DNA from: an uncultured Gammaproteobacteria bacterium
Lineage (GTDB): Bacteria; Patescibacteriota; Microgenomatia; Daviesbacterales; UBA10151
DNA: 64,000 nucleotides
Reading direction: 5' to 3'
Assembly (NCBI GenBank): GCA_964649615.1
Contig: CAZYPW010000003.1
Location: forward strand, 30,132 to 94,131
The translations under genes were made by a program, and so were the position numbers. The notes beneath the pieces were generated by a model that saw nothing but the letters and a program-made list of their open reading frames with translations, had not been told where the DNA came from and did no database searches. The stretch's first letter is position 1; the number at the start of each line of letters is the position of its first letter. Positions 5,893 to 59,047 of the stretch are shown piece after piece.

Positions 5893-5914
5893 TATCTTAA
5901 TAGTAAATCAAACT

Positions 5915-7081: not shown

Positions 7082-7083
7082 AC

Positions 7084-21872: not shown

Positions 21873-22508
21873 ATGGATACAGTTACTGCCAATCAGAATG
21901 AAAGATTAACTGAAAGACAAAAACAAACCCTGGTGTATATTTATAGTTGCATTAGATATTCAGGATATCCACCTACCTTATCCCAGTTGCGGGAAGAACT
22001 GCAAGTTGTGTCTAATCAGGCAGTCATTGATCTTTTAAAAATTCTGGAAAATAAAAAATACATTCAAAAAGAAGAAAATTCTGCGCGTGCTCTTAAAGTA
22101 ACTCAAAAAGGGTATGAAGAACTAAATGTTTCTCCCTATGCTCCTATGGTCGGGACTACAGCCGCAGGACCGTTTATGGACACTCTAGAACAATATGGCG
22201 AGTGGAAAGAAATATCATCTGATTTATCTAAGCTTTCGGAAAAGCTTGCGCTTTTTAAAATAAAAGGGGATTCAATGACTGGAGCCGGGCTGAGTGAAGG
22301 GGATATTGTGGTTGTGCAGTATGAAATAAATGAATTCCGGAATGGGGATATTGTTTTGGCAAAAAACGATGAAGGGACAACAATAAAAAGATTTGTAAAT
22401 GTAAATGGAAAAATACACTTAGCGCCGGAAAATCCAAAATATTCAAAAATTCCGTTTACTCCAGACTTGCGTCTTATAGGAAAAGTAATCTCAAAAATTG
22501 AAGTATGA
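21873..22508 (+). CDS. lexA: LexA-like repressor (winged-HTH DNA-binding domain + S24 autopeptidase domain)
   Basis: N-term LTERQKQTLVYIYSCIRYSGYPPTLSQLREEL...AVIDLLKILENKKYI. Ala-Gly cleavage region TTAAGPF. C-terminal GDSM...K Ser/Lys dyad region (KGDSMTGAG ... TIKRF). Confidence 0.8.
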   Translation: MDTVTANQNERLTERQKQTLVYIYSCIRYSGYPPTLSQLREELQVVSNQAVIDLLKILENKKYIQKEENSARALKVTQKGYEELNVSPYAPMVGTTAAGPFMDTLEQYGEWKEISSDLSKLSEKLALFKIKGDSMTGAGLSEGDIVVVQYEINEFRNGDIVLAKNDEGTTIKRFVNVNGKIHLAPENPKYSKIPFTPDLRLIGKVISKIEV

Positions 22509-25082: not shown

Positions 25083-26444
25083 ATGTCATTTTCAATAATT
25101 CAAAAATCTCAACTTGAAGGAGCGTATAGATTGGATGCGGAATATTATCAGCCGGAATACTTAGAAGTAGTCAATAAAATTTCAAAAATTCCCCACAATA
25201 TCTTAGAAAATATCTCTGAGAGCTTGTTAAGCTTCGGAGCATATTCACTTACCAGTTCTATAGTATGGCAGGAGTCTGGGATCCCATTTATCACAGCAGA
25301 AGACATCAAAGAAGGATTTATTGCTCTTGAAAACGTACGCTTTATAGATGAGAGGGCAGATGAAATTTTAAAAAAGTCTAGAGTTCATGAAGGCGAAGTG
25401 TTATTGGCTATGTCAGGTAAAGTTGGAGATACGGCTGTAGCGATTAATATTCCACCACGGCTTAATTCGAACCAAGATATAGTCAAAATTAAACTTAAAA
25501 AAAATTATTCGTCATACCTTCTCGCTGCTTTTCTGAACTCTACGTATGGAAGATTACAAATATTACGTCTCCCAGTTGGAAGCGTACAGCAACATATATT
25601 TCTTTGGCAAACTAAGTCATTATTGGTTCCAAAATTTCCGAAGAATCTCATTGAAGAAGTTGAACAGTCATATAAATTAGGGCTAGAAGAACTTGAAAAT
25701 TCAAGATTACTTTACAAACAAGCTGAAGACGTACTATTGAATGGATTGGGGCTCAAGAATTTTCAAGTTGAAGATGATTTATGTTTTGTTGTTAATCTTT
25801 CAGGTGTAAAATCTGCAAACAGAGTTGATGCTGAACATTTTCAGCCAAAATACGAAGAGTTATTAGAGAAAATTCAGCAAAAGAATACTAAAGTATTTAC
25901 TGACGTTATTAGGAATGTAACAGCAAAATTTAATCCTCTTAAAACATCAGATGAAACTTTTAAATATGTCGAACTTGCAAACATAAATTCTTCAATTGGA
26001 GTCATTGATGGATATTCAGAGATTCTAGGAAAGGAAGCACCAAGTAGAGCTAAAAGATTACTTAAAAAGGGAGATGTTATTGTATCAAGTGTTGAAGGTT
26101 CATTGGAAAAAGTCGCACTAGTAGATGGTACTCAAGAGGGGTACTTGGCCTCTACAGGATTTTTTCAGCTTAGATCAGAAGGAATATTGCCAGAAGTGCT
26201 TTTAGTTTTAGCAAAAAGTATTGTTATGCAGTGGCAATTAAAAAAACATTGCGCAGGAACCATCTTAACAGCAGTACCTAGTGAATCTTTACAGAAAATG
26301 TTTGTACCCGCAATACCAAAGGAGACTCAGCAAAAAATTGCGGAGTTGGTAAGAAAGTCGCATGAAGCCAGAAAGAAATCAAGAGAGCTTTTAGAAGAAG
26401 CAAAAAGAAAAGTTGAAGAGATGATAGAAAAGGGTAGTTCGTGA
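25083..26444 (+). CDS. hsdS: Restriction-modification specificity (S) subunit with two target-recognition domains
   Basis: Internal duplication (RLDAEYYQPEY / RVDAEHFQPKYEELL). Conserved HsdS helices LLVPKFPKNLIEEVEQ and MFVPAIPKETQQKIAELV. 453 aa. Confidence 0.75.
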   Translation: MSFSIIQKSQLEGAYRLDAEYYQPEYLEVVNKISKIPHNILENISESLLSFGAYSLTSSIVWQESGIPFITAEDIKEGFIALENVRFIDERADEILKKSRVHEGEVLLAMSGKVGDTAVAINIPPRLNSNQDIVKIKLKKNYSSYLLAAFLNSTYGRLQILRLPVGSVQQHIFLWQTKSLLVPKFPKNLIEEVEQSYKLGLEELENSRLLYKQAEDVLLNGLGLKNFQVEDDLCFVVNLSGVKSANRVDAEHFQPKYEELLEKIQQKNTKVFTDVIRNVTAKFNPLKTSDETFKYVELANINSSIGVIDGYSEILGKEAPSRAKRLLKKGDVIVSSVEGSLEKVALVDGTQEGYLASTGFFQLRSEGILPEVLLVLAKSIVMQWQLKKHCAGTILTAVPSESLQKMFVPAIPKETQQKIAELVRKSHEARKKSRELLEEAKRKVEEMIEKGSS

Positions 26445-35253: not shown

Positions 35254-36722
35254 TGGAAAGTGTTGAACAACTTGATCCAACAGCTGAAGTTTCTTCAGAA
35301 GCAGTCAAAAAGAAAGTAGTGGGAGGAGCTGCAATTTTAACCGCCAGAACTATATTTATGCAGGCGGTTTCTTTTGTCTCAGTAGGATTACTCACAGTTT
35401 TTTTAGAACCTGCCGAATATGGAGTTTTCTTTTTAGTCTCAGCAGTTATAAGTTTTTTGGCATATTTTGGTGACATTGGTTTTGCAGCAGCACTCATACA
35501 GAAAAAAGAGAAACTAACAAATAATGATTTAAAAACTATCTTCACTATACAACAAATTCTGGCTTTGATTTTGTTAATTATTACTTTTTTAATTAGTGGG
35601 GTAATTAGGAATACCTATAATCTTTCTCAGGAAGCAATTTATCTGTTATGGGCATTAGCTTTTTCTTTACTTCTATCCTCCTTAAAAACTATACCGTCAG
35701 TTTTACTTGAAAGAAAATTGGAATTTAACAAATGGATAATACCTCAAATAATAGAAACAGTAGTTTTTAATATCACAACAGTTTATTTAGCTTATAAGGG
35801 ATTTGGAGTAACTAGTTTTACAGTGGGAGTTTTATTGAGAGGATTTTCGGGCCTTTTTTTAACATACTTGATTCAACCGTGGATGCCAGGATTTTCATTC
35901 TCTAAGGATTCAATAAAAGGGTTATTAAAATTTGGAATACCCTATCAATTAAATATATTTTTAGCCATGGTAAAAGATGATGGTATGATTTTACTTTTAG
36001 GAAATATTTTAGGTCCCTCAGGACTTGGATTTTTAGCTTGGGCACAGAAATGGGCATACTCTCCTTTAAGGTTTTTTATGGACCAGGTAATAAAAGTAAC
36101 CTTTCCTGCATTTTCTCGTATACAAGATAAAAAAGAGGAGTTATCCTTGATGGTTACAAAATCAATTTTTTTCGTTTGTTTACTTGTTTTTCCTTCATTA
36201 ATTATGATAGTACTGCTTGCACCAACTTTGGTTTCAATAATCCCAAAATATTATAAATGGGAACCTGCTCTCTTCGCACTCTCTATTTTAACTATTACCT
36301 CGGCTTTGGCAGCAATCACAACCCCTTTAACCAATACCTTAAATGCAATTGGCAAAATATCAGTTACTTTTAAACTAATGATTATGTGGACTGTTTTAAC
36401 TTGGATTTTTGTTCCAGTTTTTACTTATTTATACGGATTAAATGGAGCAGCTACTGGTTTTACTTTGGTGGGCTTAAGCTCATTTGTAGCTTTATTTTTA
36501 GTTGCTAAATATATCAGGATTAACTATTTACAAAGCGTTGGTAAGCCCTTAGTGATTGCTATTATAATGGGAATGTGTGTAATTTTGGTTAAAAATATGG
36601 TCAACCCTTCTCTTAATCAGATAATAGTAATGGTCACAACCTCTTTTATTAGTTTTGTGATAGCAACATTAATTATTGAACCATCAATATTAAAATTAGT
36701 TAAATCCCAGTTTAAAAAATGA
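35253..36722 (+). CDS. wzx: Wzx-like oligosaccharide/polysaccharide flippase (MOP superfamily polysaccharide biosynthesis protein)
   Basis: 489 aa, about 12-14 TM, typical polysaccharide-biosynthesis-protein organisation. Embedded in the glycosylation locus. Confidence 0.6.
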   Translation: MESVEQLDPTAEVSSEAVKKKVVGGAAILTARTIFMQAVSFVSVGLLTVFLEPAEYGVFFLVSAVISFLAYFGDIGFAAALIQKKEKLTNNDLKTIFTIQQILALILLIITFLISGVIRNTYNLSQEAIYLLWALAFSLLLSSLKTIPSVLLERKLEFNKWIIPQIIETVVFNITTVYLAYKGFGVTSFTVGVLLRGFSGLFLTYLIQPWMPGFSFSKDSIKGLLKFGIPYQLNIFLAMVKDDGMILLLGNILGPSGLGFLAWAQKWAYSPLRFFMDQVIKVTFPAFSRIQDKKEELSLMVTKSIFFVCLLVFPSLIMIVLLAPTLVSIIPKYYKWEPALFALSILTITSALAAITTPLTNTLNAIGKISVTFKLMIMWTVLTWIFVPVFTYLYGLNGAATGFTLVGLSSFVALFLVAKYIRINYLQSVGKPLVIAIIMGMCVILVKNMVNPSLNQIIVMVTTSFISFVIATLIIEPSILKLVKSQFKK

Positions 36723-39700
36723 AGAGAATATTTTTAATAATTCTTTTTATAGTTTCAATATTTTTTCCAGTCTCAACATTTGCTCAGGAAAATTCATTTG
36801 TTTCAGTTGTTAATCCTATTAGGGGAGCTGACTTCTGGGATTTAAAAAATCAAAAAGTTGAAGATGCTGTTTTGGGACAGGCTAAAATTTTAGATAATTT
36901 TCAAGTATCTGCAACATGGTTAATTAGGTTTGATGCTTTAAATAATGGTCAGTTGATGGATATGCTTAATAAGCGAACAGAAGATGAAAAAGGAATATTT
37001 TTAGAAGTTACACCTAGTTGGACTGAAAGCTCAAATGTTAAATATAGAAATTCAATTTCTTGGCATAATGCAGGAAGTGCTTTTCTATCAGGATATAACA
37101 TAGATGAAAGAGAGAAATTAATTGATGCAGCATTTGAAAAATTTAAGCAAACTTTTAGTTTATACCCCAAATCAGTTGGAGCTTGGTGGATTGATGCGCA
37201 TTCACTTTCTTACATGAAGGAAAAGTATGAAATAACTTCTGCTTTAATTGTGGCAGATCAGTACTCCACAGATAATTATCAAATATGGGGCCAATTTTGG
37301 TCTACTCCTTATTATCCTTCTAAAACTCATGCTCTTCATCCTGCTCAATCTGTGGAAAATAAAATTCCTGTGGTAATTACCCAGTGGGCTATCAGGGATC
37401 CAGTCAATGGTTATGGGAGTGGAGTTGAAGAGAGCACTTTTTCCCTTCAAGCCAATGATTATATGGATTATCATGATCTAGATATAAGTTATTTTGCCAA
37501 GCTTTTAGATATTTATACAAAACAGGAATTTAATCAATTTGCCCAAATTGTGGTTGGTTTAGAAAATTCTTATGACTTTGAAAAATATGGCAAAGAGTAT
37601 GAAAATCAGATAAAGGTTTTAGCAGATAAAAAAAACAGTGGCCAGATTTCCCTGGTAACTTTATCTGAGTTTGCTAATTGGTATACAAAAACTTTCCCCA
37701 AGCTTTCTCCAGAGCAAGTAGTTATCTCAGATGATCCCTTGGGAAGTTCTAAAAAGGTGGTCTGGTTTATGAACCCATATTATCGGGCTGGTTGGTTTTT
37801 CAATAGAGATGGGAGTGTATTTAGAGATATACGCCAATATATTGATAGCGAAGAAGAGTTATGCTTAAGAGTACGATGTGACTTGGTTAATTTTGCAACC
37901 TTTGCCACCAGAGTTTTGGATCAAGTAAGCTTTGGCCATAAATGGATTATAGATGAAGGAAAAATTTCTGACTTTAAAGCTAAAAAACTAGATCAAGGTT
38001 TTAGTATTTCTTACAAAAATGAAGCGGGAAAGATAAGAGTAGTTGAATTTTTACCAAGAGATATTAGTATAGATGGGAAAATTTCATCTATCGATCAAGC
38101 GATACTTGAAGCAACTAAATATAAATTAGAACAAAAAATAACCCAACCTTCACTTACCAGGGGATCATTCCAGTGGTCTTTGGGAAGCTCTAGCTATAAA
38201 GTAGGAGTATTTTTATTATTTCTGATATTAGGGTGTATTGTTCCAGGATTTTTTATGATTAATAAACTTACTTTTAAAGAAGATTCCTTTGCTAAAAAGC
38301 TTACCCTCGCTACAATTTTGGGGTTTGTTTTATTAACGCTTTTGTTCTATATCTTAGGCCTTTTAAAGCTGCAGCAGTTAATATTTATTTATTTTGCTGT
38401 AAATGCCTTACTTCTAATAAAAAATTACAAAAGTTTTAGCAGCTTACGGTTGTTTAATTTTCAATCAAAACTTGATTTTGGTATTTTGGGATTAATCCTT
38501 GCTGGTAGCATTTTTCAGCAGCTTCCATCATTTAAAAATGGGCTAATTTTTCCATATGGCATGGGGTTATGGGGCCCAAATACCCATGATGGGATATGGC
38601 ATTTAAGTTTAATTAATCAATTAATAAAAAGTGTACCCGCGGAAAATCCAATTTTTTCAAAGACAAGTATTACTAATTACCATTATTTTTATGATTTATT
38701 AATAGCAGCAACCAGTTATGTCTCAGGCCTCACGGTATTAGATTTGATATTTAGATTTTACCCTTTTATTTTCTCTATTCTTTTAGGAGCAGGAACATAT
38801 TATCTAATCCAAATATTATTTAAAGAAAAAATAGCCGCCTTGTTTGGTCTTTATCTTGTCTATTTTGCTGGTAGTTTTGGATGGGTAGTTGACTTTATAA
38901 AAGGCAGGCAGGGGGGGGGTGAATCTGCCTTTTGGGCAAACCAGTCAATTTCTTTTAACCTAAATCCCCCTTTTGCAATATCCCTTTTAATAGTCATTGC
39001 CATATTACAGCTTTTATTTATCAAGAGGTTCAATATTTTATCTGTGACAACTTTAACTATTTTGATAGGTTCTTTAATCGCTTTTAAGGCTTACGGTGGA
39101 GTTTTAATTCTTTTAAGTCTTCTTTTAGTAGGACTCATTAAAAAATCCATTTCTTATTTAGTCACCTTTTCTACCAGTTTAATTTTGTCTTTAGTTTTAT
39201 TTCTTAGCAATTTTAATGTAAGTGAGAGATTGATATACTTTTCCCCTTTTTGGTTTGTTCATTCAATGATAGATTCACCTGATAGGGTGGGGTGGGTAAG
39301 ATTATCATTGGCACGAATAACAGGTTTTGAGCAAGGAAATTTATTTAAATTCACTGTAGCAGAAGCAGCAGGTTTTTTAATTTTTCTAATAGGAAACTTA
39401 GGAACCAGAGCCTTTGCCATATTTGGTTTATTAAATATTAGAAATATTGTCCGACATCAAGAATACATAACTTTACTTATCTTTTGTTTATTATCAATAT
39501 TAATTCCTACTATCGTTATTCAAGCTGGCAATCCCTGGAACACAATTCAGTTTATTTATTATGGCCTCTATATTTCAGCCATAGTTTCAGGTGCTGTTAT
39601 GTCTAATTTCCTTAGAATAAATAGGGCACTAGCAACTTTAGTTATTTTGCCCATGTTAATAATCACCCCAATTAATGCTTGGGCAACTGCTAGTGGATAT

Positions 39701-40126
39701 TTAAGTTATCAGCCCCACGCTAAGATAAGCAATGATGAAATTGGAGCACTAGAATTCTTAAAGTCACAAGAAGATGGCGTAGTTTTAACTTATCCCTATG
39801 ATGAAAAGCTAAAACAAAAGTTTGAAGAACCATGGCCTTTGTTTATGTATGATAGTACTGCTTATGTTTCTGCTCTTTCTCAAAAAGCTTCATTTTTGGA
39901 AGATATACCTCAAAATGAAATTCTGCTGACAGATTATAAAAAAAGAATAGTAGGTTCTAAGGATTTTTTCTCTGGCCAAAATACAGAAAGCAATGAATTC
40001 TTAAAAAAAAGTAATATAAGATATATCTATCTGCCCAAAACATTTGGAGTTATCTTAGATGAAAGTTTGCTAACAGTAAATAGAATTTTTGAAAATAAAG
40101 AAGTTTTAATATATCAAGTTAAATAA
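36719..40126 (+). CDS. Large envelope protein: signal peptide + ~480-aa extracytoplasmic domain + polytopic membrane domain with HDGIWHLSL motif (putative GT-C-like/polymerase-like)
   Basis: 1135 aa. Membrane part (GPNTHDGIWHLSLINQLI...NYHYFYDLLI) is paralogous to the 40126..42102 protein. Contains a G9 tract at 38911-38919. Confidence 0.45.
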   Translation: MKRIFLIILFIVSIFFPVSTFAQENSFVSVVNPIRGADFWDLKNQKVEDAVLGQAKILDNFQVSATWLIRFDALNNGQLMDMLNKRTEDEKGIFLEVTPSWTESSNVKYRNSISWHNAGSAFLSGYNIDEREKLIDAAFEKFKQTFSLYPKSVGAWWIDAHSLSYMKEKYEITSALIVADQYSTDNYQIWGQFWSTPYYPSKTHALHPAQSVENKIPVVITQWAIRDPVNGYGSGVEESTFSLQANDYMDYHDLDISYFAKLLDIYTKQEFNQFAQIVVGLENSYDFEKYGKEYENQIKVLADKKNSGQISLVTLSEFANWYTKTFPKLSPEQVVISDDPLGSSKKVVWFMNPYYRAGWFFNRDGSVFRDIRQYIDSEEELCLRVRCDLVNFATFATRVLDQVSFGHKWIIDEGKISDFKAKKLDQGFSISYKNEAGKIRVVEFLPRDISIDGKISSIDQAILEATKYKLEQKITQPSLTRGSFQWSLGSSSYKVGVFLLFLILGCIVPGFFMINKLTFKEDSFAKKLTLATILGFVLLTLLFYILGLLKLQQLIFIYFAVNALLLIKNYKSFSSLRLFNFQSKLDFGILGLILAGSIFQQLPSFKNGLIFPYGMGLWGPNTHDGIWHLSLINQLIKSVPAENPIFSKTSITNYHYFYDLLIAATSYVSGLTVLDLIFRFYPFIFSILLGAGTYYLIQILFKEKIAALFGLYLVYFAGSFGWVVDFIKGRQGGGESAFWANQSISFNLNPPFAISLLIVIAILQLLFIKRFNILSVTTLTILIGSLIAFKAYGGVLILLSLLLVGLIKKSISYLVTFSTSLILSLVLFLSNFNVSERLIYFSPFWFVHSMIDSPDRVGWVRLSLARITGFEQGNLFKFTVAEAAGFLIFLIGNLGTRAFAIFGLLNIRNIVRHQEYITLLIFCLLSILIPTIVIQAGNPWNTIQFIYYGLYISAIVSGAVMSNFLRINRALATLVILPMLIITPINAWATASGYLSYQPHAKISNDEIGALEFLKSQEDGVVLTYPYDEKLKQKFEEPWPLFMYDSTAYVSALSQKASFLEDIPQNEILLTDYKKRIVGSKDFFSGQNTESNEFLKKSNIRYIYLPKTFGVILDESLLTVNRIFENKEVLIYQVK

Positions 40127-42102
40127 TGGTTATACAGGCAATATTATTTTTAATACTGGTCAGCATCTGTTTTATTCCTTTTGGTTTTTTACTTTTAAGA
40201 AAAATAAAAAATGATCTAGACGATTTAGAAAAAATAGTTTTATCAACAGTTTGTGGAATGGTTTTATTTACTCTTACTGCTTATTTTCTTGCCTTTTTAC
40301 ATTTAAGATTTTTAATGTGGCTATTCCCTATTTTAGGCATTATCCTGGTTATTAAAAATAGAAAAGAATTATCAAAGTTTAGTATTCATCTAAAATATAA
40401 ACTATTTTTCCTTACAGTTTTAACAGTAGGGATCATTGGCCAGGTTGCAGTTAATGCTCCCTCAGGAATTCCTTACTCTGAAGGTATTTATTTTTGGAGT
40501 TCACATGGACATGATGGGTTATGGCACCTTTCTTTAATGGAACACATGCATCAGAATATTTTCCCTTTTCAAAATCCTGAATTTAATGGAGCTAGACTAC
40601 AAAACTATCATTTTTTTGTGGATCTTTTAATGTCTGAGTTTTCTAGGCTCTTTCCGATTTTTTCTAACCTAGATATTTATTTTAGGTTTATGCCAATTGT
40701 TTTTTCTACCCTCTTAGGGCTTTGTGCCTTTATATTTGTTAGAGCCTGGAGCAAAAAAGAGTTAGCAGGAATTTGGGCAATGATTTTTACCTACTTTTGT
40801 GGCAGCTTTGGTTATCTGCTCTATATTCCCACCCACAAAAGTTTAGGAGGGGAAGCAATTTTTTGGGTTTCTCAAACCCAATCAGTTTTAGGTAATCCTC
40901 CCCATGCAGCGGCATTTATTATAGTTACAGCCTGTCTTTTTATTCTGTTTAAGTACTTTCAACAAAGAAAGTGGTCATATTTTTGGATTAGCGTTTTATT
41001 AGGAGGAGCAGTGATAGAGTTTAAAGTTTATGGAGGAGTTTTACTTTTAGGAGGACTTTTTTTAGTTTCTATTTTTGAAGTTATTTTCAAAAGAATCTAT
41101 AAAAGCTTACTGCTGTTTTTATCAATGCTCTCTTTATCGTTACTGATTTATCTTCCAAACGCTGCAAATTCTCAGGATTTTTTAATTTTTGAACCATGGT
41201 GGTTTATAAGAACTATGGTAGTAGCTACTGATAGATTAAATTGGTTGGATCTGGAGTTGAGAAGGCAAACCTATATTGCAGAAGAGAATTGGAAAAGAGT
41301 TATCCAGCTCGAAGCAACTGCCTTTTTAATTTTCCTTTTTGGTAATCTGGGGATGAGATTTATTGGCTTTTGGACAATATTCAAACAAGTAAAGATGAAC
41401 ATATTTAAAGATTCTTTTAATATATTATTTTTATTCATTACCATTACTTCTTTTTTTATTCCAGTGATTTTTTTACAAAAGGGTGTAGTTTGGAATGCTA
41501 TTCAGTTTAATCAGTATTTCCTGCTATTTTTTGGATTTCTGGCTGGAATGTCAGCAAATGATTTATTAGATCGCATAAAAAATAATTTCATAAAAATTTT
41601 AATGGGGTTACTGATAATTATATTTGCAATTCCTACCCAAGTAGGGCTTCTTTGGCAGTTTTATTCAAATCTACCCTTATCAAAAATTTCCTATGAAGAG
41701 ATTAAAGCTTTAGAATTTATTAAAAATAATTCTTCATATGGGGATATTATTTTGACAGCTCCTTTTAATAAATATGAAAGAGATCAGTATAAAACTCCCC
41801 CAATACCTATTTATGCTTGGTATGATACTGGTTATGTAGCAGCTTTTTCTTCAAGAAAGGTTCTCCTTTCTGATGAAGAACAGGTAACGATCATGGGTTA
41901 TCAGGCAGATGCATTCTTCAAAGAAAGAGAGTTAATATTTCAAACAGATGATATTGAAATGATAAATAGCTATTTAGATAAAAACAGTATAGATTATATT
42001 TATCTAGTCTGGGGCCAGAAATTCCAAGCAGATGAAAAATTGATTAAGGCAGATTTAATTTTTGAAAACAAAGATGCAAAAGTATTTAAAGCTAGAAAAT
42101 GA
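40126..42102 (+). CDS. Polytopic membrane protein, paralog of the membrane domain of 36719..40126
   Basis: SSHGHDGLWHLSLMEHMHQNIFPFQNPEF...NYHFFVDLLM. 658 aa. Confidence 0.45.
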   Translation: MVIQAILFLILVSICFIPFGFLLLRKIKNDLDDLEKIVLSTVCGMVLFTLTAYFLAFLHLRFLMWLFPILGIILVIKNRKELSKFSIHLKYKLFFLTVLTVGIIGQVAVNAPSGIPYSEGIYFWSSHGHDGLWHLSLMEHMHQNIFPFQNPEFNGARLQNYHFFVDLLMSEFSRLFPIFSNLDIYFRFMPIVFSTLLGLCAFIFVRAWSKKELAGIWAMIFTYFCGSFGYLLYIPTHKSLGGEAIFWVSQTQSVLGNPPHAAAFIIVTACLFILFKYFQQRKWSYFWISVLLGGAVIEFKVYGGVLLLGGLFLVSIFEVIFKRIYKSLLLFLSMLSLSLLIYLPNAANSQDFLIFEPWWFIRTMVVATDRLNWLDLELRRQTYIAEENWKRVIQLEATAFLIFLFGNLGMRFIGFWTIFKQVKMNIFKDSFNILFLFITITSFFIPVIFLQKGVVWNAIQFNQYFLLFFGFLAGMSANDLLDRIKNNFIKILMGLLIIIFAIPTQVGLLWQFYSNLPLSKISYEEIKALEFIKNNSSYGDIILTAPFNKYERDQYKTPPIPIYAWYDTGYVAAFSSRKVLLSDEEQVTIMGYQADAFFKERELIFQTDDIEMINSYLDKNSIDYIYLVWGQKFQADEKLIKADLIFENKDAKVFKARK

Positions 42103-43708: not shown

Positions 43709-46165
43709 TTAGAAACGTTTTTTATATGCTGCTAATACCCCCCCCATTGTTAATAAAAATACCGATACTAAACTAATTTTTAACCCTAAACTAAATGATT
43801 GAGGCAGATAGTTGAAAACAACAACATGGTCTCCAGCAGGTATTTTAACAGCCCTGAATATAAAATTTGCTGGTGATATTGGCAACTTTTGGTTGCCATC
43901 TAAAGTAGCAGCCCATCCTTCCTCAAATTGATCTGCCAGTACTAAAACCTGCTCAGAAGTGGAACCAGTCCTTATTTTTACTGAATTAGCTTTGTAGTCC
44001 ACAATTTGAACAGTTCCTTTGCCGTCAACTCCATTAACCCCTAAATCTTTTGATAAAAGCACAGTTATCCTTGGATCAAAACTTTTATCTGTCATAATGA
44101 TATCTTTTATATTTTGCTCAGAGGCAGGAATTATTTTTTTGGCAAAGTATGCGCGCTCTTTAACTTTTGGATTCTCTAAAACTGCTGTAGATTTATCTTT
44201 GAAAACAACATTGTATCCACTTTCTTTGACCTTGTAATGAAGAATATCTCCTGGAGTGTACCCATTTTCATCCCGCATTACTGCTACAAGATATTTTGTA
44301 TTAGCAGCATCTAAATAGGGAGAGGAGTATCTGGAGGAAATTTCAGCATATCTTGATGAATTACCAGTTCTGAGATCCCCCCCATTTAGAAAATGGATGA
44401 ATTTACCATATTGGCTCAAATATATGGGATCGTACCCCTCGTAAGAATATAGATTATAAGCTGTCCAGGTATTGGAAGGAAATACTTCTGCATGTTCCCG
44501 CCCTACTCTAAAAAAACCCTCCTGTTTTTGTAAAAATTCCAAAACTGGGGTCTTCGGAAAAATTAAATTATTTGGCACAAAGGGGTTAAATTTTAGAAAA
44601 TATCTGCCAAGATCAAAAGTAATAAAAAGTAATAGCAACAGTGGCACTAAATTTAGTTTGTTTAAGGGTATGGATTTAAACTTAAGTTTTATTAAAGTTA
44701 CAGCTGAGAGAATAGATAATAAAATAAATGGTAAAAGAGTATTTTTAGTTGCTATTTTAAAGTTGTCTAAATTATAGTCATTACTGTTTAAATATACTTT
44801 GAGATATTTTTCATCAGGTGCCCAGCCTAGGATATCCCAAATAAAAAAGCTGGTAAGAAGTGTTCCTAAGATTATTCCCAAAATAGCAGCCCAGGACCAA
44901 GTAAGTGTCTTAGAGAAAAAAGCATAATTATTTTTTTCAAAAATGTGGTTAAGCGCAATTGAGGCAAGAAATGAGGAACAAAGGATGGTAATAAACAGTG
45001 CTCTGCTAGCATATGATGAAGTAAGAAGAGGAATTTTTATCTGATATAGATAATGAGAAATTGCGTTATCAAAGATAAGTATTAAACTTATGCCCAAAAG
45101 TATCAGGAAGAAAGCTGATTGTTTACCCCTTACTTTAAAAAATGAATATATTAGCAGAGGCAAAGTAATTATTCCCAAGAAACCACTTGTTTCTGAGTAA
45201 TTTAGGTAACCCCAGTAGTTTCTGGTTACAGGATTGCCAAAATAGTCAGGAATAAAAAATTTGAATATGTCTTTGCTGCCCAGTAATCCAAAGTTACCTT
45301 CTGCAGAATAGCTTTCTGTTTGTCTAATAGATTTTTGTAAAAGCTCGTAACTTGGTAAAAGTTGGGCAGCTATGAGGGAGATAGAAAAAATGATTGCAAC
45401 TGCTAAAAAAAATGCTTTATTGAAAAATAGTTTATCTTTCCAGCTAATCCATAAAAAATATAGAACAATAATAGTGTATGAGTAAGTTGTTACTTGAGCA
45501 TTTCCCGCAAGTATAATTAGCCCTAAAGATGTTATTAATAAAAGTATGAATCTATATTTAGAAGAATCAGTAAATTTTTTTACTGCATATAAAGAGAGTG
45601 GCAGCCAAGACATTCCATGAACTGCTGTCCCTAATTCAAGCCAGGTAGCCATCAGCCCACCAAGCGAGAAAATAATTGCACCTGATAATCTGGCAATAAT
45701 AGATTTTATAAATTGAGAGACAAAGAGATAAAAAGTTAATGAAGCGATCAAGGTTTGAGAGTAAATGAAAAGTCCCCAGCCATAATATTTTGGCAATAGA
45801 AGTAATATATTTAAAGGATATAAAGTGGCAGAATGATAAGTTGCCAAAAGAGGATTGCCGGTAAAAGAATAAGGATTCCATAGAGGCCACTGGAGATTTC
45901 TTAGAGATTCTATAGCCAAGTATTTCCATAGAATAAATTGTGAGAAAACATCTGAAATAAGGGGATTTTTTACTGGCATCTTATAATAGTCCAACCAAGG
46001 AAAATAGCTGCCAATCAGCAGGTCTCCCGGAAAAGGAATTTGGCCAAAAAGAAAAAATTTATAGTAAAGCAGAGAAATAACTGAAGCTAAAAATATTATT
46101 GGTGCTAAAGGATGATTTAGTAGCCAACGAATTTTTTTTGTAGTCACATCTTTAAGTATAAACAT
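43709..46165 (-). CDS. yfhO: YfhO-family membrane protein (GT-C-like glycosyltransferase)
   Basis: ~820 aa. N-terminal PFPGDLLIGSYFPWLDYY...LWNPYSFTGNPLLATYHSATLYPL resembles the YfhO family. Start placed at internal Met (46165) to avoid 120-bp overlap with the divergent GT2 gene. Confidence 0.55.
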   Translation of the reverse strand: MFILKDVTTKKIRWLLNHPLAPIIFLASVISLLYYKFFLFGQIPFPGDLLIGSYFPWLDYYKMPVKNPLISDVFSQFILWKYLAIESLRNLQWPLWNPYSFTGNPLLATYHSATLYPLNILLLLPKYYGWGLFIYSQTLIASLTFYLFVSQFIKSIIARLSGAIIFSLGGLMATWLELGTAVHGMSWLPLSLYAVKKFTDSSKYRFILLLITSLGLIILAGNAQVTTYSYTIIVLYFLWISWKDKLFFNKAFFLAVAIIFSISLIAAQLLPSYELLQKSIRQTESYSAEGNFGLLGSKDIFKFFIPDYFGNPVTRNYWGYLNYSETSGFLGIITLPLLIYSFFKVRGKQSAFFLILLGISLILIFDNAISHYLYQIKIPLLTSSYASRALFITILCSSFLASIALNHIFEKNNYAFFSKTLTWSWAAILGIILGTLLTSFFIWDILGWAPDEKYLKVYLNSNDYNLDNFKIATKNTLLPFILLSILSAVTLIKLKFKSIPLNKLNLVPLLLLLFITFDLGRYFLKFNPFVPNNLIFPKTPVLEFLQKQEGFFRVGREHAEVFPSNTWTAYNLYSYEGYDPIYLSQYGKFIHFLNGGDLRTGNSSRYAEISSRYSSPYLDAANTKYLVAVMRDENGYTPGDILHYKVKESGYNVVFKDKSTAVLENPKVKERAYFAKKIIPASEQNIKDIIMTDKSFDPRITVLLSKDLGVNGVDGKGTVQIVDYKANSVKIRTGSTSEQVLVLADQFEEGWAATLDGNQKLPISPANFIFRAVKIPAGDHVVVFNYLPQSFSLGLKISLVSVFLLTMGGVLAAYKKRF

Positions 46166-46202
46166 TTTACTAAGCAGTAAGAAACTGGTAAGATTTTTAC
46201 AT

Positions 46203-47102
46203 ATGCCAAAAGGAATCTCTGTTGTTATAAATACTTTTAATGAAGAGCGAGATATAGAGAGAGCTATTAGAAGCGTAAAATGGGCACAGGAGGTAATAGT
46301 TTGTGATATGCATTCAACTGACAAAACAGTTGAGTTGACAAAAAAATTAGGAGCAAAAATCTTTTATCACAAAAAAGAGGATTTTGTTGAACCAGCTAGA
46401 AATTTTGCTATTTCTAAAGCTGAATATGATTGGGTTTTAATCTTGGATCCAGATGAAGCAATAGCAGAGAATTTAAAAGTTAAATTAACTAAGATATCAG
46501 ATAAGATGAATAAAATAGATTATGTGAAAGTTCCCAGAAAAAATATTATTTTTGGCAAATGGATGCAAGCTTCTAAATGGTGGCCAGACTTAAATATAAG
46601 ATTTTTTAGAAAAGGTAAAGTAAGTTGGACTAATAAAATACATCAGCCTCCAAAAGCGTTAGGGCAGGGATTGGATTTAGAAGCTCAGGAAGACTATGCA
46701 ATAATTCATCATCATTATGAAAGTATCACTCAATTTTTAGAAAGAATGATTAGGTATACAAAAATACAAGCAGAGGAATTAAAAAAAGAAGGATATCTTT
46801 TTGACTATAAGGATTTAATTAAAAAACCCCTTTCTGAATTTTTAAGCAGATTTTTTGCCAATAGAGGCTTTGAAGATGGATTACATGGATTAGCTTTAAG
46901 CCTGCTCCAATCGTTTTCATTTTTAATAGTCTATCTTCGTTTATGGGAGATGGAAAAATTCAAACAACAAAGTATAGATTTAAAAGAATTTAAAGAGGTA
47001 AACAACCAAGCGGGTGAGGAATTAAAATACTGGTTTAATTATAGCAGCCTATCTAAAAATCCCTTTAAAAGTTTTTTACAAAAGGTCAAAGGCAAAATAT
47101 AA
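46203..47102 (+). CDS. GT2 glycosyltransferase
   Basis: ISVVINTFNEERDIERAI...VLILDPDEA (DxD-like). C-terminal amphipathic ...IVYLRLW tail shared with two paralogs. Confidence 0.75.
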   Translation: MPKGISVVINTFNEERDIERAIRSVKWAQEVIVCDMHSTDKTVELTKKLGAKIFYHKKEDFVEPARNFAISKAEYDWVLILDPDEAIAENLKVKLTKISDKMNKIDYVKVPRKNIIFGKWMQASKWWPDLNIRFFRKGKVSWTNKIHQPPKALGQGLDLEAQEDYAIIHHHYESITQFLERMIRYTKIQAEELKKEGYLFDYKDLIKKPLSEFLSRFFANRGFEDGLHGLALSLLQSFSFLIVYLRLWEMEKFKQQSIDLKEFKEVNNQAGEELKYWFNYSSLSKNPFKSFLQKVKGKI

Positions 47103-50285: not shown

Positions 50286-50935
50286 AAAAGTTAAAAAAAT
50301 TAGAGGATATTTGGAATCAAGTGCCTCCTGATTACTACCAGACTGGAGTTAAAAGTAATGCCTTTCAGTGGATTTGGCATAGTTGGAAATGGTATTCAAT
50401 AAAACAAATACTAAAGTTTGCAAAGATTGAGGCTTTAAAAATTCTTGATATTGGTTGTGCTTCAGGTTATCTTACTTTTCAAATAGCCACTTTTTTTCCT
50501 AATGCAGAAGTTGTGGGGATTGATTCCTATAAAAGAGCTATAGAATATGGCCAAAAAATTTATCCAAATATTAAATTTAAAGTAGGTGATGCCCATAAAC
50601 TTCCCTTTAGTAATGAGAATTTTGACTTGATAACTTGTATTGAAACCTTGGAACATGTTGAAGCACCTGAAGAAGTAATTAGAGAAATAAAACGTTGTTT
50701 GAAAAAGAATGGAAAAGTTTTAATTGGCCAAGATACAGATAATTTACTTTTTAAAATTATTTGGTTGATTTGGACAAAGTCTCGAGGTAAAGTTTGGCAT
50801 AATTCTCACATTCATCCCTATGGAGCAAAAGATTTAGAAAAATTGATAAAAAGATGCGGCCTAAGGATTGTTAAGAAAAAACTATCTCATTTTGGTTTAG
50901 AAATATTCTTTTTAGCAGAAAAATCCAGTCCTTAA
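50282..50935 (+). CDS. Class I SAM-dependent methyltransferase
   Basis: ILDIGCASGYLT (motif I), FDLITCIETLEHV, KKNGKVLI. 217 aa. Confidence 0.75.
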   Translation: MKKLKKLEDIWNQVPPDYYQTGVKSNAFQWIWHSWKWYSIKQILKFAKIEALKILDIGCASGYLTFQIATFFPNAEVVGIDSYKRAIEYGQKIYPNIKFKVGDAHKLPFSNENFDLITCIETLEHVEAPEEVIREIKRCLKKNGKVLIGQDTDNLLFKIIWLIWTKSRGKVWHNSHIHPYGAKDLEKLIKRCGLRIVKKKLSHFGLEIFFLAEKSSP

Positions 50936-52446
50936 TGAAAGATTTAAAGTATTGGTTAATATTAACTTTTTGCCTGATATTTTTTTGGTTCCTATTAACT
51001 TTTAGAATTACTGATGTGCCTCCAGGTATAAATGGTGATGAGGCAACCTTAGGTAAGAATGCCATATTGCTATCTCAAAATTTACATGATGAGAATAAGA
51101 GATTTCTTCCTCTGTTTGTTTCCGCTCATGATGGTAAGGATTGGAAACCGCCAGTAAGCATGTATACAACAGTAATTTTTTTTAAATTATTTGGGCCTTC
51201 ATATTATATATTGCGTAGCGTTAGTGTTTTCCTAATTCTTGTTAGCGCCACTCTTTTATTTATCACTTTGAAAGATTTATTAAATGTAAAATTAGCTTTT
51301 GCGGGTTTTTTGATCTTTATGACAATTCCTGCAGTTACAATTCAATCCCACTTAGCTTTAGAAAATATTGCTTTATTGCCTTTTGTGATTCTTTGGATTT
51401 TTATGCTCATAAGATATCAAAAAACCGCAGAGAATAGGTATTTAATATTATCAGGCATTAGTTTAGGAGCTGGTTTATATTCCTATGGATCTTTGAGGCT
51501 CATGGCACCTGTTTTTGCTTCATTAACATTTTTTTACATTCTTAAAAAAGGAAGAATATTACTATCTCACAAAATTAGAAAGCTGGCTTTTTTTACAATT
51601 GGGCTAATGCCCTTTGTTTTATTTTTTATAATAGTAAAAAAAGAATATCCTGGTGCGTTAGGTAATTATAATAGGCCCACCATGCCCGCTAGTTATCAAG
51701 AATTTTTCTTACCCTATCTTTCTGCTTATGATTTAAGCTTTCTTTTTATAAAAGGAGATGCTACTCCTTACCATTCAACTGGTACTCAGGGAGTTTTTCT
51801 TATGTCTACTTTACCTTTATTTTTGCTGGGTATTTATCAAAGCCTTAAAAAAAATGATCCAATTTTAAATTTAATTCTGGCAGCTTTTTTAACAGCCCCC
51901 TTATTATTAGGATTTGTTCCATCAGTTTATAGAGGGAGCAGGCTTTTAGCAATTTTACCCCTTTATACTGTAATTGCCACAATAGGAGTTGAATTTTTAT
52001 TAACAAAAAATCTTATATTTTTAAAGAAAATGTTTTTAAGTTTGATAGTAGTTATTATTTTCCTAAATTTTTGTGATTTTATAAATGATTATTGGTTTAA
52101 ATATCCAGAAAGAGTTAATCAACATTTTGAAAAACCGATCCATAATGTGTATGAAAAAGTATACCAATTATCAAAAAAAGAAAATCTAAAAGTTTATATA
52201 CAAGATGATATACCTGCCAGAAACCCTTATGCTTATGATTTCTTAGAACAATCATATTTCCCAGAAGGTTTAGAAAGATGGAAAGGGACATGGACTATAC
52301 CAAAGAAAAGTTTAGTTATAATAACTGTACACACTTTTAATAAGTCTTTAGTGCCAAAAGAACTAGAGGTAATTAATAATGGTTCTTTAGATCTTATTTT
52401 GTTAATAAATAGATCAGATAAAGATTTATCTATAAATGAAACCTAA
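50935..52446 (+). CDS. GT39/ArnT-like GT-C glycosyltransferase, tandem array member 1
   Basis: DVPPGINGDEATLGKNAILL...FGPSYYILRS first-loop motif. About 11 TM. Confidence 0.7.
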   Translation: MKDLKYWLILTFCLIFFWFLLTFRITDVPPGINGDEATLGKNAILLSQNLHDENKRFLPLFVSAHDGKDWKPPVSMYTTVIFFKLFGPSYYILRSVSVFLILVSATLLFITLKDLLNVKLAFAGFLIFMTIPAVTIQSHLALENIALLPFVILWIFMLIRYQKTAENRYLILSGISLGAGLYSYGSLRLMAPVFASLTFFYILKKGRILLSHKIRKLAFFTIGLMPFVLFFIIVKKEYPGALGNYNRPTMPASYQEFFLPYLSAYDLSFLFIKGDATPYHSTGTQGVFLMSTLPLFLLGIYQSLKKNDPILNLILAAFLTAPLLLGFVPSVYRGSRLLAILPLYTVIATIGVEFLLTKNLIFLKKMFLSLIVVIIFLNFCDFINDYWFKYPERVNQHFEKPIHNVYEKVYQLSKKENLKVYIQDDIPARNPYAYDFLEQSYFPEGLERWKGTWTIPKKSLVIITVHTFNKSLVPKELEVINNGSLDLILLINRSDKDLSINET

Positions 52447-55623: not shown

Positions 55624-55695
55624 TCACTAGCAGAAAACCCCGTTTTCTTAAAACGAGGATGAATGCTAAAGTGATTACAGTCTTCCGCGGGATAG

Positions 55696-55769: not shown

Positions 55770-55781
55770 AAGTTTATAACT

Positions 55782-57431
55782 ATGAAATACAAATTATTGA
55801 TTCTTGGATTGATAGTGCTCCTGGCATTTTTTCTTAGGTTTTATAAAGTGACTGAAATTCCGCCTGCCTTAAATTGGGATGAAGTCTCAATTGCATATAA
55901 TGCATATTCTATTTTGCAAACTGGAAAAGATGAGTGGAATCAATTCTTTCCTCTACACTTTAAAGCTTATGGAGAATACAAATTACCAATCCAAATATAC
56001 TTAAGTATTCCAGCCATATATCTATTTGGTTTAAATGAGCTGGGGATTAGAATAACACCTGTTATATATGGAACTTTGACAGTTTTGGTGATGTTTTTTT
56101 TAGGAAAAGAGATTTTTGGAAGTATCGTAGTGGGGTTTATTTCAGCTTTTTTGCTGGCAGTTTCTCCGTGGCACATCCAGCTTACCAGGGGTTCTTTCGA
56201 ATCCTCTTTTGCGACATTTTTTGTTACTTTAGGCATTTGGCTTCTTCTCAAAGGTTTTAAAAATAATAAGTGGTTTGTTGTTGCTATGGTCCCATTTGCG
56301 CTGTCAGCTTTTACCTATAATACTGCCAGGATTTTCACCCCGCTTTTCCTACTGACGACAGGTTTCTTATATAGAAAAATATTGATTCGTTCAAAAGAAT
56401 TTGTAATATACTCAATAGTAGTATTCACCATATTACTTTTACCACTAACACCGTATGTTTTAAGCGGAGAAAGAAGTGCAAGGTATAAATTAGTCAGCAT
56501 TACTGATGATCCAGGCCTGGTTCCTCGCATTAATGAGAATAGGGGAAACTCTAAATTACCTGCTCCTTTGCCAAAATTAATACATAACAAAGTTACCTAT
56601 ATTTCTTTTTACTTTGTCAGAAACTACTTAGCTCATTTTAGTCCTCAGTTTTTATTTACTTCGGGTGCACCTCACAGGCAGCATCATGTTCAAAATATAG
56701 GACAACTTTATTTATTCCAAGCACCGTTTTTATTCATTGGGCTTATTTGGCTTTTTAAATTAAAACACAAATTCAAAAATCTATTATTATCTTGGGTATT
56801 ACTGGCATATATTCCAGTTTCAGTGACTGGCGATAGCATTCCTCATGCCCTAAGAACTCTTATTGCAGCTCCTTTTTATCAATTAGTTACTGCTTTTGGT
56901 TTTTGGGTTTCACTGAGGTTTATTAAAAAAAGCTCAAAAACAATTAAGCTAGCTTTTGCACTCATTTTAGCTATAATTGTAGTCTCAAGTATTACTTATT
57001 ATCTAAATCAATATTATAATATTTACCCTAAAAAATACTCTAGAGACTGGCAATATGGATACAAGCAAGTTATAGATTATATTAAGAAACATCAAGCAGA
57101 ATATGATTTAATTGTTTTTTCAAGGCACTATGGTGAACCGCATATGTTCACCTTATTTTTTTTAAATTATGATCCTGCAAAGTATCAAAGTGACCCGAAT
57201 TTAATAAGATATGAAACTAATGATTGGGTATGGGTTTTAAAGTTTGATAAATACTATTTTCCAGATTTAGGAGATGAGGGGACTCAATTTGAGGATATGG
57301 TTAAAAGCAGTAGGGGAAAGAAGATACTGTTTGTAGGTAGACCAGGTGATTTTCCAAGAGAAATACCAAGACTTTTATCAATTAATTTCCTAAATGGTGA
57401 GAATGCTTTTGATATCATAGAGGTTAAATGA
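55782..57431 (+). CDS. GT39/ArnT-like GT-C glycosyltransferase, array member 4
   Basis: EIPPALNWDEVSIAYNAYSILQTGKDEWNQFFPLHF...GIRITPVIYG. Confidence 0.75.
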   Translation: MKYKLLILGLIVLLAFFLRFYKVTEIPPALNWDEVSIAYNAYSILQTGKDEWNQFFPLHFKAYGEYKLPIQIYLSIPAIYLFGLNELGIRITPVIYGTLTVLVMFFLGKEIFGSIVVGFISAFLLAVSPWHIQLTRGSFESSFATFFVTLGIWLLLKGFKNNKWFVVAMVPFALSAFTYNTARIFTPLFLLTTGFLYRKILIRSKEFVIYSIVVFTILLLPLTPYVLSGERSARYKLVSITDDPGLVPRINENRGNSKLPAPLPKLIHNKVTYISFYFVRNYLAHFSPQFLFTSGAPHRQHHVQNIGQLYLFQAPFLFIGLIWLFKLKHKFKNLLLSWVLLAYIPVSVTGDSIPHALRTLIAAPFYQLVTAFGFWVSLRFIKKSSKTIKLAFALILAIIVVSSITYYLNQYYNIYPKKYSRDWQYGYKQVIDYIKKHQAEYDLIVFSRHYGEPHMFTLFFLNYDPAKYQSDPNLIRYETNDWVWVLKFDKYYFPDLGDEGTQFEDMVKSSRGKKILFVGRPGDFPREIPRLLSINFLNGENAFDIIEVK

Positions 57432-59047
57432 AAGCAGGGATCTTGCTACCCTTAACAAGGTTTTTTAGTAAAAACTATTTATTTTTCCTAATTTGTTTAT
57501 TGTTTCTTTTAACCAGACTTTTTATGATTTCCGGAATTCCCCCTTCTGTTTATTGGGATGAGGCATCGATAGGATATAATGCGTATTCAATTTTACAAAC
57601 TGGAAAAGATGAATGGGGTGAATTTATGCCCATCCACTTTCGGGCTTTTGGCGAATTTAAGTTGCCTGTTTATATTTATTCAGTAGCAATATTTGAGAAG
57701 ATTTTTGGGTTAAATGAATTGTCAATTCGATTGCCCGCAGTGTTTTTTTCCTTAGCCACTGTAGTTTTAACTTATTTAATAGCTTTAAAATTAATTAACA
57801 AGCAGGCTGCTCTTTTCAGTGCTTTCTTTATGAGCATTTCTCCTTGGTTTTTTATATTTAGTAGAGTTGGTTATGAAATTTCGGCTGGTTTAGCATTCTA
57901 TCTATTAGCAGTTTACTTATTTTTGTACGCATTTAAAAAAAAATATCTATTTATAATAACCACTCTTAGTTTGATCTTAAGCCTATATAGCTATAACAGT
58001 TTTAGGATAATATCAACAGTAACCTTTATAATTTTTATTATAATGCTGCTTCGAAAAAATATTAAAGGCTTCATATTAATTGCATTAATAGCTACTTTAA
58101 TTTTTTTGTCTAGCATGATTCCCATAATTAAGCTATTTATATACGATGCTGGTTTTGGTAGAGCCCAAGCTTTTACTTTATTTCCCACCATACAGCAGGT
58201 TTATGATCTTTCAGGAAAACCCCGCCTTCAATTAATTTTTGACAGGTCACAATCTACTGACTGGAGTAAAAATGTGATGATGATTTTTAAAAACTATCTT
58301 TCTCATTTTAGCCCCCCTTTTCTTTTATTTGAGGGTGATTCTAATCCAAGAAACCAACAGCCTGGGTTTGGTCAAATTTATATTCTGGACCTGATCCTAA
58401 TTATATTTGGAATTTTGTATATTAAATCCTTAAAAAACAAATGGATAAGCTTAATAGTTTTATTGTTACTTTTGGGGTTTATCCCAGCCAGTCTTTTTAA
58501 GGAATCTCCCCATTCTCTGCGTTCTCTTCCGGCACTTCCTTTTCTGATATTAATTATCAGCTGTGGCGCAACTTATTTATCCACTAAATATGCTAAATTG
58601 CCATACATAATAATTACTATCTATAGTGTATTATTTATAGTTTATTTTCAACATTTTATAGGCAGTTATTCCAAAGATACCTCACAGGATTGGCAATATG
58701 GCTATAAAGCTCTTTTTGATGAATATAAAGATAAATTTAAAGATTATGAAAAAGTTGTGATTTCTGATGACTATGCCCAGCCTTATATATTTGTGTTGTA
58801 CTATTTAAAATACCAGCCTAATTCTTATCTAGCTTCTGTTGGATATAACAGCGTGCAGGATTGGGGATTTTCTAAGGTAGAGAAATTTGGTAAGTTTGAA
58901 TTTCAAAAAGAGGAGAATTTAAAAATCTCAAATATGGGTAAAACTTTATTATTTACTACCAAAGATCAAACGGAGTTTTCTAAAGATTTAAAATCAACAG
59001 TAAAATTTCTGGATGATGAAGTTGCTTTTTGGGTATATGAGTTATGA
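57428..59047 (+). CDS. GT39/ArnT-like GT-C glycosyltransferase, array member 5
   Basis: GIPPSVYWDEASIGYNAYSILQTGKDEWGEFMPIHF...SIRLPAVFFS. Closest paralog of member 4. Confidence 0.75.
   Translation: MKAGILLPLTRFFSKNYLFFLICLLFLLTRLFMISGIPPSVYWDEASIGYNAYSILQTGKDEWGEFMPIHFRAFGEFKLPVYIYSVAIFEKIFGLNELSIRLPAVFFSLATVVLTYLIALKLINKQAALFSAFFMSISPWFFIFSRVGYEISAGLAFYLLAVYLFLYAFKKKYLFIITTLSLILSLYSYNSFRIISTVTFIIFIIMLLRKNIKGFILIALIATLIFLSSMIPIIKLFIYDAGFGRAQAFTLFPTIQQVYDLSGKPRLQLIFDRSQSTDWSKNVMMIFKNYLSHFSPPFLLFEGDSNPRNQQPGFGQIYILDLILIIFGILYIKSLKNKWISLIVLLLLLGFIPASLFKESPHSLRSLPALPFLILIISCGATYLSTKYAKLPYIIITIYSVLFIVYFQHFIGSYSKDTSQDWQYGYKALFDEYKDKFKDYEKVVISDDYAQPYIFVLYYLKYQPNSYLASVGYNSVQDWGFSKVEKFGKFEFQKEENLKISNMGKTLLFTTKDQTEFSKDLKSTVKFLDDEVAFWVYEL

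Follow-up and report, generated by a model that had tools for sequence, protein, structure and literature searches.

A nine-guanine tract in an envelope glycan gene of Candidatus Daviesbacteria: slip-prone, but probably an incidental homopolymer

Results

The nine-guanine tract and the gene that carries it

We analysed a 64,000-nucleotide stretch of contig CAZYPW010000003.1 (assembly GCA_964649615.1, positions 30,132 to 94,131 of the forward strand), hereafter referred to as the window, from an uncultured bacterium placed by GTDB in Daviesbacterales. The element under study is a homopolymer of nine guanines (G9) within a gene for an envelope protein of 1135 amino acids (aa), which an earlier note, made from the sequence alone, had proposed as a candidate site of phase variation by slipped-strand mispairing. 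The window reads ...GGCAGGCA-GGGGGGGGG-TGAATC..., where GGGGGGGGG is exactly nine G at positions 38911-38919, preceded by an a and followed by a t. The run is read as CAG GGG GGG GGT, encoding Q731-G732-G733-G734, inside the open reading frame (ORF) 36719..40126(+), and both its length and its in-frame QGGG reading are as the note had described them. The GC content of the window is 33%, and G9 is its longest G/C run and the only one of nine or more, in agreement with the note's remark that long G tracts are rare in this DNA. The features that bear directly on the tract are the following:

36719..40126, forward strand: envelope protein gene, 1135 aa, conserved in Candidatus Daviesbacteria at 56-67% identity and without an above-threshold Pfam or NCBIfam match
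36785..38128, forward strand: N-terminal extracytoplasmic domain (approximately aa 23-470) with a DUF3863/CE4-type glycoside hydrolase-deacetylase fold, by Foldseek
38180..39706, forward strand: polytopic membrane module (approximately aa 488-996, about 17-18 helices), GT-C glycosyltransferase-like by Foldseek and the AlphaFold2 (AF2) helix list, with the tract near its middle
38909..38944, forward strand: loop codons Q-G-G-G-E-S-A-F-W-A-N-Q, the tract-bearing motif
38911..38919, forward strand: G9 homopolymer, made of the third base of CAG (Q731), GGG (G732), GGG (G733) and the first two bases of GGT (G734)
39716..40123, forward strand: C-terminal globular alpha/beta domain (approximately aa 1000-1135; AF2), lost in every frameshifted allele
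40126..42102, forward strand: 658-aa paralogue, related to the 1135-aa protein over its membrane and C-terminal part (BLASTP, 33% identity over 660 aa, E 3e-81)

Alleles with other tract lengths were constructed in silico. Gain of one G (G10) gives a product of 734 aa, with a TGA directly after the tract and the stop at residue 735, and loss of one G (G8) gives a product of 747 aa, versus 1135 aa for G9. The G7 and G11 alleles encode 733 and 748 aa, respectively, while the G6 and G12 alleles keep the frame. The simulation bears out the claim that a change of one G would truncate the protein after about 730 aa. The accompanying claim, that most of the membrane domain would be removed, is a slight overstatement: in the AF2 model about eight helices precede the tract, and a one-G change would remove the second half of the module (about 9-10 helices) together with the 135-aa C-terminal domain. 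The truncated products of 734-748 aa would retain the deacetylase-like domain and about eight helices, and would lose the conserved loop in which the tract lies. Internal restart of translation after the tract was considered and rejected, since there is no close in-frame start codon and the first in-frame Met downstream is residue 850.

Two properties expected of a simple sequence repeat (SSR) contingency locus are therefore found here, namely a G/C tract of slippage-prone length (about seven to eight or more, in an ORF or promoter) and, in the simulated alleles, a switch between full-length and truncated product upon a change of one repeat unit. Were this a true contingency locus, mispairing of slipped strands at G9 would reversibly toggle the GT-C glycosyltransferase between ON (G9) and OFF (G8 or G10, 734-747 aa). 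Such a switch might diversify the surface glycan of an episymbiotic bacterium of the candidate phyla radiation (CPR), in the service of phage evasion or host attachment, while the paralogue supplies the basal function. The clean truncation by a single G, with a TGA right behind the tract in the +1 G allele, speaks for such a switch, as does the adjoining paralogue. All evidence taken together, we regard this reading as unlikely. The first point against it is position, as G9 lies at 64% of the ORF, in mid-gene, and characterised switches are mostly found near the 5' end of the gene or in the promoter.

Predicted architecture of the protein and its paralogue

The N-terminus of the 1135-aa protein is signal-peptide-like. 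An AF2 model was built from 28 orthologues (mean predicted local distance difference test score, pLDDT, 77), and its parts were compared with known structures by Foldseek. The N-terminal domain matched 3lm3 (DUF3863; E 2.3e-11, template modelling (TM) score of 0.61 relative to the target), and it also matched ArnD (8t0j) and CE4 (peptidoglycan) deacetylases; the corresponding Pfam match, to DUF3863 (PF12979), fell below threshold (E 0.014, 14.6 bits vs the 27-bit cut-off). The membrane module matched STT3 (8pn9_A, E 5.5e-7), PglB (6gxc_A, 3.5e-5) and AftA (8if8_C, 8.6e-5), all with a probability of 1.00, as well as a further PglB structure (5ogl), with TM-scores that are low (0.37-0.50) in a model of pLDDT 77. 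The protein has no significant match to a Pfam or NCBIfam family (PMT_2, STT3, ArnT and others included) and no profile match among the sequences of the PDB, and the fold search was the one search to yield an assignment. On these fold matches, the protein is predicted to join a secreted DUF3863/CE4-like domain to a membrane glycosyltransferase of the GT-C fold. Its homologues number more than 500, and where the source name is informative they belong to Candidatus Daviesbacteria or to other Microgenomates/Patescibacteria (CPR) and are similar over the full length at 56-67% identity.

The 658-aa paralogue encoded next to it aligns to aa 499-1135 of the 1135-aa protein and is without the N-terminal DUF3863/CE4-like domain; it has no Pfam family either. 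Its loop is K-S-L-G-G-E-A-I-F-W, so that the paralogue has no G tract. The two genes stand side by side in many Daviesbacteria, and the tandem pair seems to represent an uncharacterised family of GT-C-like proteins, which we encountered only in Daviesbacteria and related Microgenomates.

A conserved operon within a large glycan cluster

The window consists almost entirely of envelope-glycan genes. The cluster around the tract spans at least 37 kb (27016-63641) and encodes a Wzx flippase, three PTPS-related membrane proteins, a YfhO-like protein, several GT2 and GT4 glycosyltransferases, an S-adenosylmethionine (SAM) methyltransferase and a PIG-V-like mannosyltransferase. Downstream of 27 kb there are eight PMT_2-only GT-C paralogues, six of them consecutive (50935-60639); one further PMT_2 match is sub-threshold. 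An upstream block (305-21246) contains genes of the dTDP-rhamnose and GDP-mannose pathways, along with a GT2-GtrA gene and a GT2-PMT_2 fusion. Both the fold matches and this location uphold the statement of the earlier note that the tract lies in a surface-glycan gene, and the setting, with glycan genes on a large scale around the tract and more of them upstream, is a point in favour of a contingency locus.

The conservation of the gene points in the opposite direction. The order PTPS-related gene, Wzx, tract-bearing gene, paralogue and PMT_2 is kept in about 47 species, in which the tract-bearing gene is single-copy; it therefore belongs to a core operon rather than to the accessory genes that vary between strains. 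Contingency loci typically lie in accessory, dispensable surface genes; the surface-glycan role applies here and accessory status does not. In one relative (L047, see below) the orthologue is disrupted, which may reflect a misassembly.

Two further features of the window were recorded, which belong to a type I restriction-modification module located between the two glycan blocks, beside a LexA-like repressor gene (21873-22508):

22505-24442: N6_Mtase protein with an N-terminal HSDR_N_2 domain, type I restriction-modification
25083-26444: HsdS-like specificity subunit, type I restriction-modification

In some bacteria HsdS genes undergo phase variation. The genes of the window include neither MutS nor MutL.

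Three assemblies agree on a tract of nine

The earlier note had suggested that length heterogeneity be sought in population data. Two contigs of the Logan collection, assembled independently from runs SRR12113383 and SRR12113430, match the window with 100% identity over 4.8 and 4.1 kb, respectively, including G9, and encode the identical protein; the SRR12113430 contig was seen in three samples. All three consensus assemblies, the window included, thus have G9, and the proposed check returned no alternative allele. They represent a single clonal population, and are as such uninformative on the long-term stability of the tract. In an exact look-up among approximately 15 billion public proteins the G9 product was present, while the products of G6, G7, G8, G10, G11 and G12 were absent, and the list of homologues contained no N-terminal fragment of 100% identity. 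A scan of metagenome contigs of the Joint Genome Institute (JGI) for the flanks with a variable tract between them (G5 plus N{0,10}) gave 0 matches, which means that this strain is missing from the collection. The intact neighbours (the 658-aa paralogue and Wzx) were also looked up as a way to recover contigs spanning the tract, and none were on record; the Logan contigs of this organism are 4-5 kb long. The lack of length polymorphism in the assemblies and protein records found is a second point against a contingency locus.

The same data bear on the concern, raised in the earlier note itself, that the run is an artefact of sequencing or assembly, with some other true length or with a poly-G error of two-colour chemistry behind it. 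Homopolymers are error-prone and the source is a metagenome-assembled genome (MAG), which lends the concern some weight. Against it, assemblies from three different runs match at every base over 4.1-4.8 kb, which rules out an assembly artefact, and only a length of nine (or six or 12) keeps the highly conserved 400 aa downstream in frame. Moreover, two-colour chemistry produces poly-G artefacts at the ends of reads, not in the midst of conserved coding sequence. An artefact is already largely refuted by these observations, and we consider it extremely improbable.

Orthologues have the loop but not the tract

In the AF2 model the loop that holds the tract lies between helices 721-729 and 735-744, with a pLDDT below 50 at residues 734-736. 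It is among the most conserved stretches of the family, with the consensus G-S-F-G-W...[L/F]-[G/S/A]-G-E-S-x-F-W-x-N-Q. The alignment of 28 sequences shows no variation at G734, E735, S736, F738, W739, N741 and Q742, and G, S or A at position 733. As the family alignment and the paralogue share the loop glycines, G733 and G734 are ancient. Position 732 is a different matter: it is hydrophobic in 119 orthologues (mostly L or F, in a few cases I, W or M), the paralogue has L, and G732 is found in the lineage of the window alone, where it replaces the hydrophobic residue. None of the 119 orthologous proteins has GGG at this loop.

At the nucleotide level we compared 43 orthologous loci from species-representative genomes, in which the best orthologue is 63% identical; no relative of any kind comes closer than 67% identity. 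At the homologous site the G-run measures 2 nt in 21 of the loci, 3 nt in eight, 4 nt in ten, 5 nt in one, 6 nt in one and 7 nt in two (L027 and L042), the last length having been reached twice independently. The conserved amino-acid constraint, GGN-GGN-GAR, makes the site G-rich regardless, and the range of two to seven, including two cases of G7, means that runs form there repeatedly from codon choice alone. Nine was reached only in the lineage of the window, through the extra Gly and the codons CAG, GGG and GGG. The tract, whose conservation the earlier note had proposed to check, is thus missing from all 43 loci and all 119 proteins, the nearest relative being just 67% identical, and the recurrence in relatives that characterises a contingency locus was not observed.

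The absence of the tract from the orthologues weighs also on another explanation, that the site serves programmed recoding. RNA-polymerase or ribosome slippage would then give a fixed fraction of a 734-aa isoform, composed of the deacetylase-like domain and about eight helices. The TGA immediately after the tract in the +1 G frame would fit such a use, as would the complete N-terminal domain kept in the truncated product. However, with no tract in any orthologue there is no conserved need of the family for a short isoform, and known transcriptional slippage sites are mostly runs of A or T. No stimulatory structure was seen, though no search aimed at one was made. In our view recoding has very little likelihood.

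Two observations on individual orthologous loci were made along the way. In L047 (LCEJ01000072.1, Candidatus Daviesbacteria GW2011_GWA2_42_7) the orthologue (4024-7255) is split over three reading frames, and its match to the 1135-aa protein has two gaps of approximately 30 residues each. The gap that was measured is an out-of-frame deletion of about 85 nt, which takes away exactly residues 717-744, i.e. the whole loop that holds G9 in the window. Through the second gap, approximately residues 103-133 are missing. We considered L047 as a natural OFF allele at the tract site and rejected it, as deletions of about 85 nt are unrelated to homopolymer slippage; the locus is a pseudogene, or else this 10.9-kb MAG contig is locally misassembled. 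In addition, many of the species-representative MAGs (L003, L005, L007 and others, with CAY*/CAZ* accessions, 'binchicken') that have Daviesbacteria-type orthologues and synteny are titled 'uncultured Gammaproteobacteria bacterium', which looks like mislabelled taxonomy.

A tract of nine is expected about once per genome

To put the length of the tract in proportion, run lengths were compared with two kinds of shuffled sequence, and the answer varied with the null model used. When dinucleotides were preserved, 1.05 G8 matches were expected per window, and the observed three were reached in 12 of 100 shuffles, which is not significant. When all protein sequences were held fixed and synonymous codons were permuted, the mean number of runs per window was 1.97 for lengths of at least seven, 0.52 for at least eight and 0.076 for at least nine. 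The probability of one or more runs of at least nine was 0.07 per window, and that of three or more runs of at least seven was 0.31. For runs of at least nine the codon shuffle corresponds to approximately 1.2 per Mb, or about one per 1-Mb genome, so that G9 is locally unusual, yet its occurrence once per genome is unsurprising. Chance alone would supply one such tract in each genome, a further argument against a contingency locus.

The next longest G/C runs of the window are the following:

43738..43745, reverse strand: G8 (C8 on the forward strand) in the YfhO-like gene 43709..46324, read ATG GGG GGG GTA (M-G-G-V), at aa 860 of 871
44377..44383, reverse strand: G7 (C7 on the forward strand) in the same YfhO-like gene, read AAT GGG GGG GAT (N-G-G-D), at aa 648

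All three runs are thus Gly-Gly(-Gly) spelled by GGG codons. The G8 lies 11 codons from the stop, and a frameshift there would alter just the last 11 residues or so of the YfhO-like protein, which also speaks against a contingency locus. The longest A/T run of the window, an A9 (57935-57943, AAA AAA AAA, K-K-K), lies near aa 170 of the PMT_2 paralogue 57428..59047; though slip-prone, it is unremarkable in a genome of 67% AT.

The relatives provide a broader sample. Across 1.04 Mb of related DNA, from 52 syntenic Daviesbacteria loci, there are 130 G/C runs of length six, 31 of length seven, three of length eight and none of nine or more. Within the coding sequences of these loci, three runs of at least eight were observed vs 7.4 +/- 2.4 expected from the codon shuffle, and none of at least nine vs 1.1 expected. 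The clade shows a steep fall-off and a mild depletion of long runs, as expected from weak purifying selection against slippery tracts, unlike genomes that use poly-G switching. Neither an excess of long tracts nor a secondary mode of lengths, as seen where contingency loci are in use, was found in the window and the syntenic loci. One of the three runs in the relatives is a G8 (S-G-G-E) at L035 position 12967, at about aa 1012 of the L035 orthologue, and another is a G8 (L-G-G-V) at L033 position 14304, in the gene directly downstream of the L033 orthologue. That two of the three fall in the tract-bearing gene or its downstream partner does not amount to a significant enrichment, given that the loci were taken around these very genes.

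Discussion

The origin of the tract

Taken together, our results make it probable that G9 is an incidental, lineage-specific homopolymer, prone to slippage but not an evolved switch. The proposed course of events is simple. The conserved Gly-Gly-Glu loop (GGN GGN GAR) would have acquired a third Gly at a position where Leu/Phe is usual, and the codons at the site would have happened to be CAG GGG GGG GGT, yielding nine G in a row. Any run of nine G is a hot spot of slippage, and at this tract slippage would generate null alleles truncated at residue 734-748, at a raised rate in the population, and the tract itself is probably young and neutral or mildly deleterious. From the absence of the tract in relatives, the chance expectation and the uniform length in assemblies we infer that mutability has not been selected for at this site. 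On present evidence G9 is a commonplace homopolymer at chance level, in a loop rich in glycine.

Several observations weigh against this interpretation, and most of them are the same that favour a contingency locus. Whatever its origin, the tract is very likely hypermutable, judged by analogy with Campylobacter jejuni, in which nine is the modal length of the proven switches and reporters with G8 or G9 show high switching rates (PMC3401435). No longer G/C run than G9 occurs in approximately 1.1 Mb of clade DNA, and the window has two runs of at least eight vs about 0.18 predicted from the rate in relatives. Its three longest G/C runs (G9, G8 and G7) lie within 5.5 kb, in two envelope genes. 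At the tract itself the codons are those that maximise the run (CAG, 34% usage; GGG, 19%, used twice), and the change from L/F to G took place at an otherwise conserved hydrophobic position. Genes for surface glycans are the classic gene class for contingency loci, and the downstream paralogue could buffer an OFF state. Finally, consensus assemblies cannot reveal minority length variants.

The proposal of the earlier note is in our judgement partly supported: it is mechanically sound and functionally unsupported. A phase-variation locus that evolved as such is not supported, given the absence of the tract in relatives, the uniform G9 in assemblies, the lack of an excess of long tracts in the clade and the core status of the gene. 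Because two comparative features fail, the excess of long tracts and the recurrence in orthologues, the tract should not be filed as a contingency locus. Our searches of the literature for phase variation or homopolymeric tracts in CPR/Patescibacteria, for the SRR accessions and for Daviesbacteria glycosyltransferases, returned nothing relevant and no case of SSR phase variation in CPR; the nearest CPR case found was a gene with hypervariable 9-mer repeats in a Gracilibacterium (PMC6851277).

Should the tract be a real switch, slipped-strand phase variation would extend to uncultivated CPR bacteria, and would act on a surface glycan relevant to their episymbiotic life. The strongest form of this idea, that G9 is the first simple-sequence contingency locus in CPR, which reversibly switches off a core GT-C enzyme with a tandem paralogue as backup, seems to us quite doubtful, more so than a switch as such. 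If true, a clonal population of an ultrasmall episymbiont would keep mixed surface-glycan types for phage escape or host attachment. For the interpretation of G9 as an incidental homopolymer, the value of the case lies in the warning that a lone long G run in a surface gene is insufficient to call a contingency locus. The distribution of tract lengths in the clade, conservation in orthologues and surveys of alleles are needed before such a call is made.

Comparison with known systems

The systems closest in appearance are the poly-G/C loci of C. jejuni in capsule, lipooligosaccharide (LOS) and flagellin-glycosylation genes, together with comparable loci in Neisseria and Helicobacter pylori. 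With the C. jejuni loci (PMC3401435) the tract shares an intragenic G9 in an AT-rich genome, a surface-glycan gene and a toggle of the frame by one G. C. jejuni has 29 loci of seven or more, as counted for strain NCTC11168 (PMC4965091), with a mode of nine in tract length (PMC3401435), in accessory genes that vary between strains, and with demonstrated length polymorphism. Here, by contrast, there is one tract of at least nine in approximately 1.1 Mb of clade DNA, in a core syntenic gene, with no tract in orthologues and no polymorphism seen. The tract works like a contingency locus only insofar as slippage would yield OFF alleles.

The second class for comparison is that of incidental Gly-Gly and Pro-Pro homopolymers, encoded by GGG and CCC, sites of frequent mutation on which purifying selection acts weakly. 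The three runs of the window and the three G8/C8 runs of the relatives all fit this class, being GG(G) or PP in GGG or CCC codons, and their frequency is at or below the expectation from codon shuffling. G9 departs from it in that nine nucleotides are in the extreme tail for the clade and needed a replacement at a conserved hydrophobic position.

The gene itself invites a third comparison, with the GT-C enzymes STT3/PglB, AftA and ArnT/PMT and with the DUF3863/CE4 deacetylase fold, and it may be of more interest than the tract, as a Daviesbacteria-wide fusion of a deacetylase-like domain with a GT-C module, which comes with a tandem paralogue and has no family assignment. It resembles these proteins in the predicted folds of its membrane module and N-terminal domain and in its context, alongside a Wzx flippase and many PMT_2 genes. 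It is unlike them in that it has no family match at the sequence level and, for the membrane part, low TM-scores (0.37-0.50). The combination of a deacetylase-GT-C fusion with a tandem paralogue that lacks the deacetylase-like domain appears to be confined to Daviesbacteria and Microgenomates.

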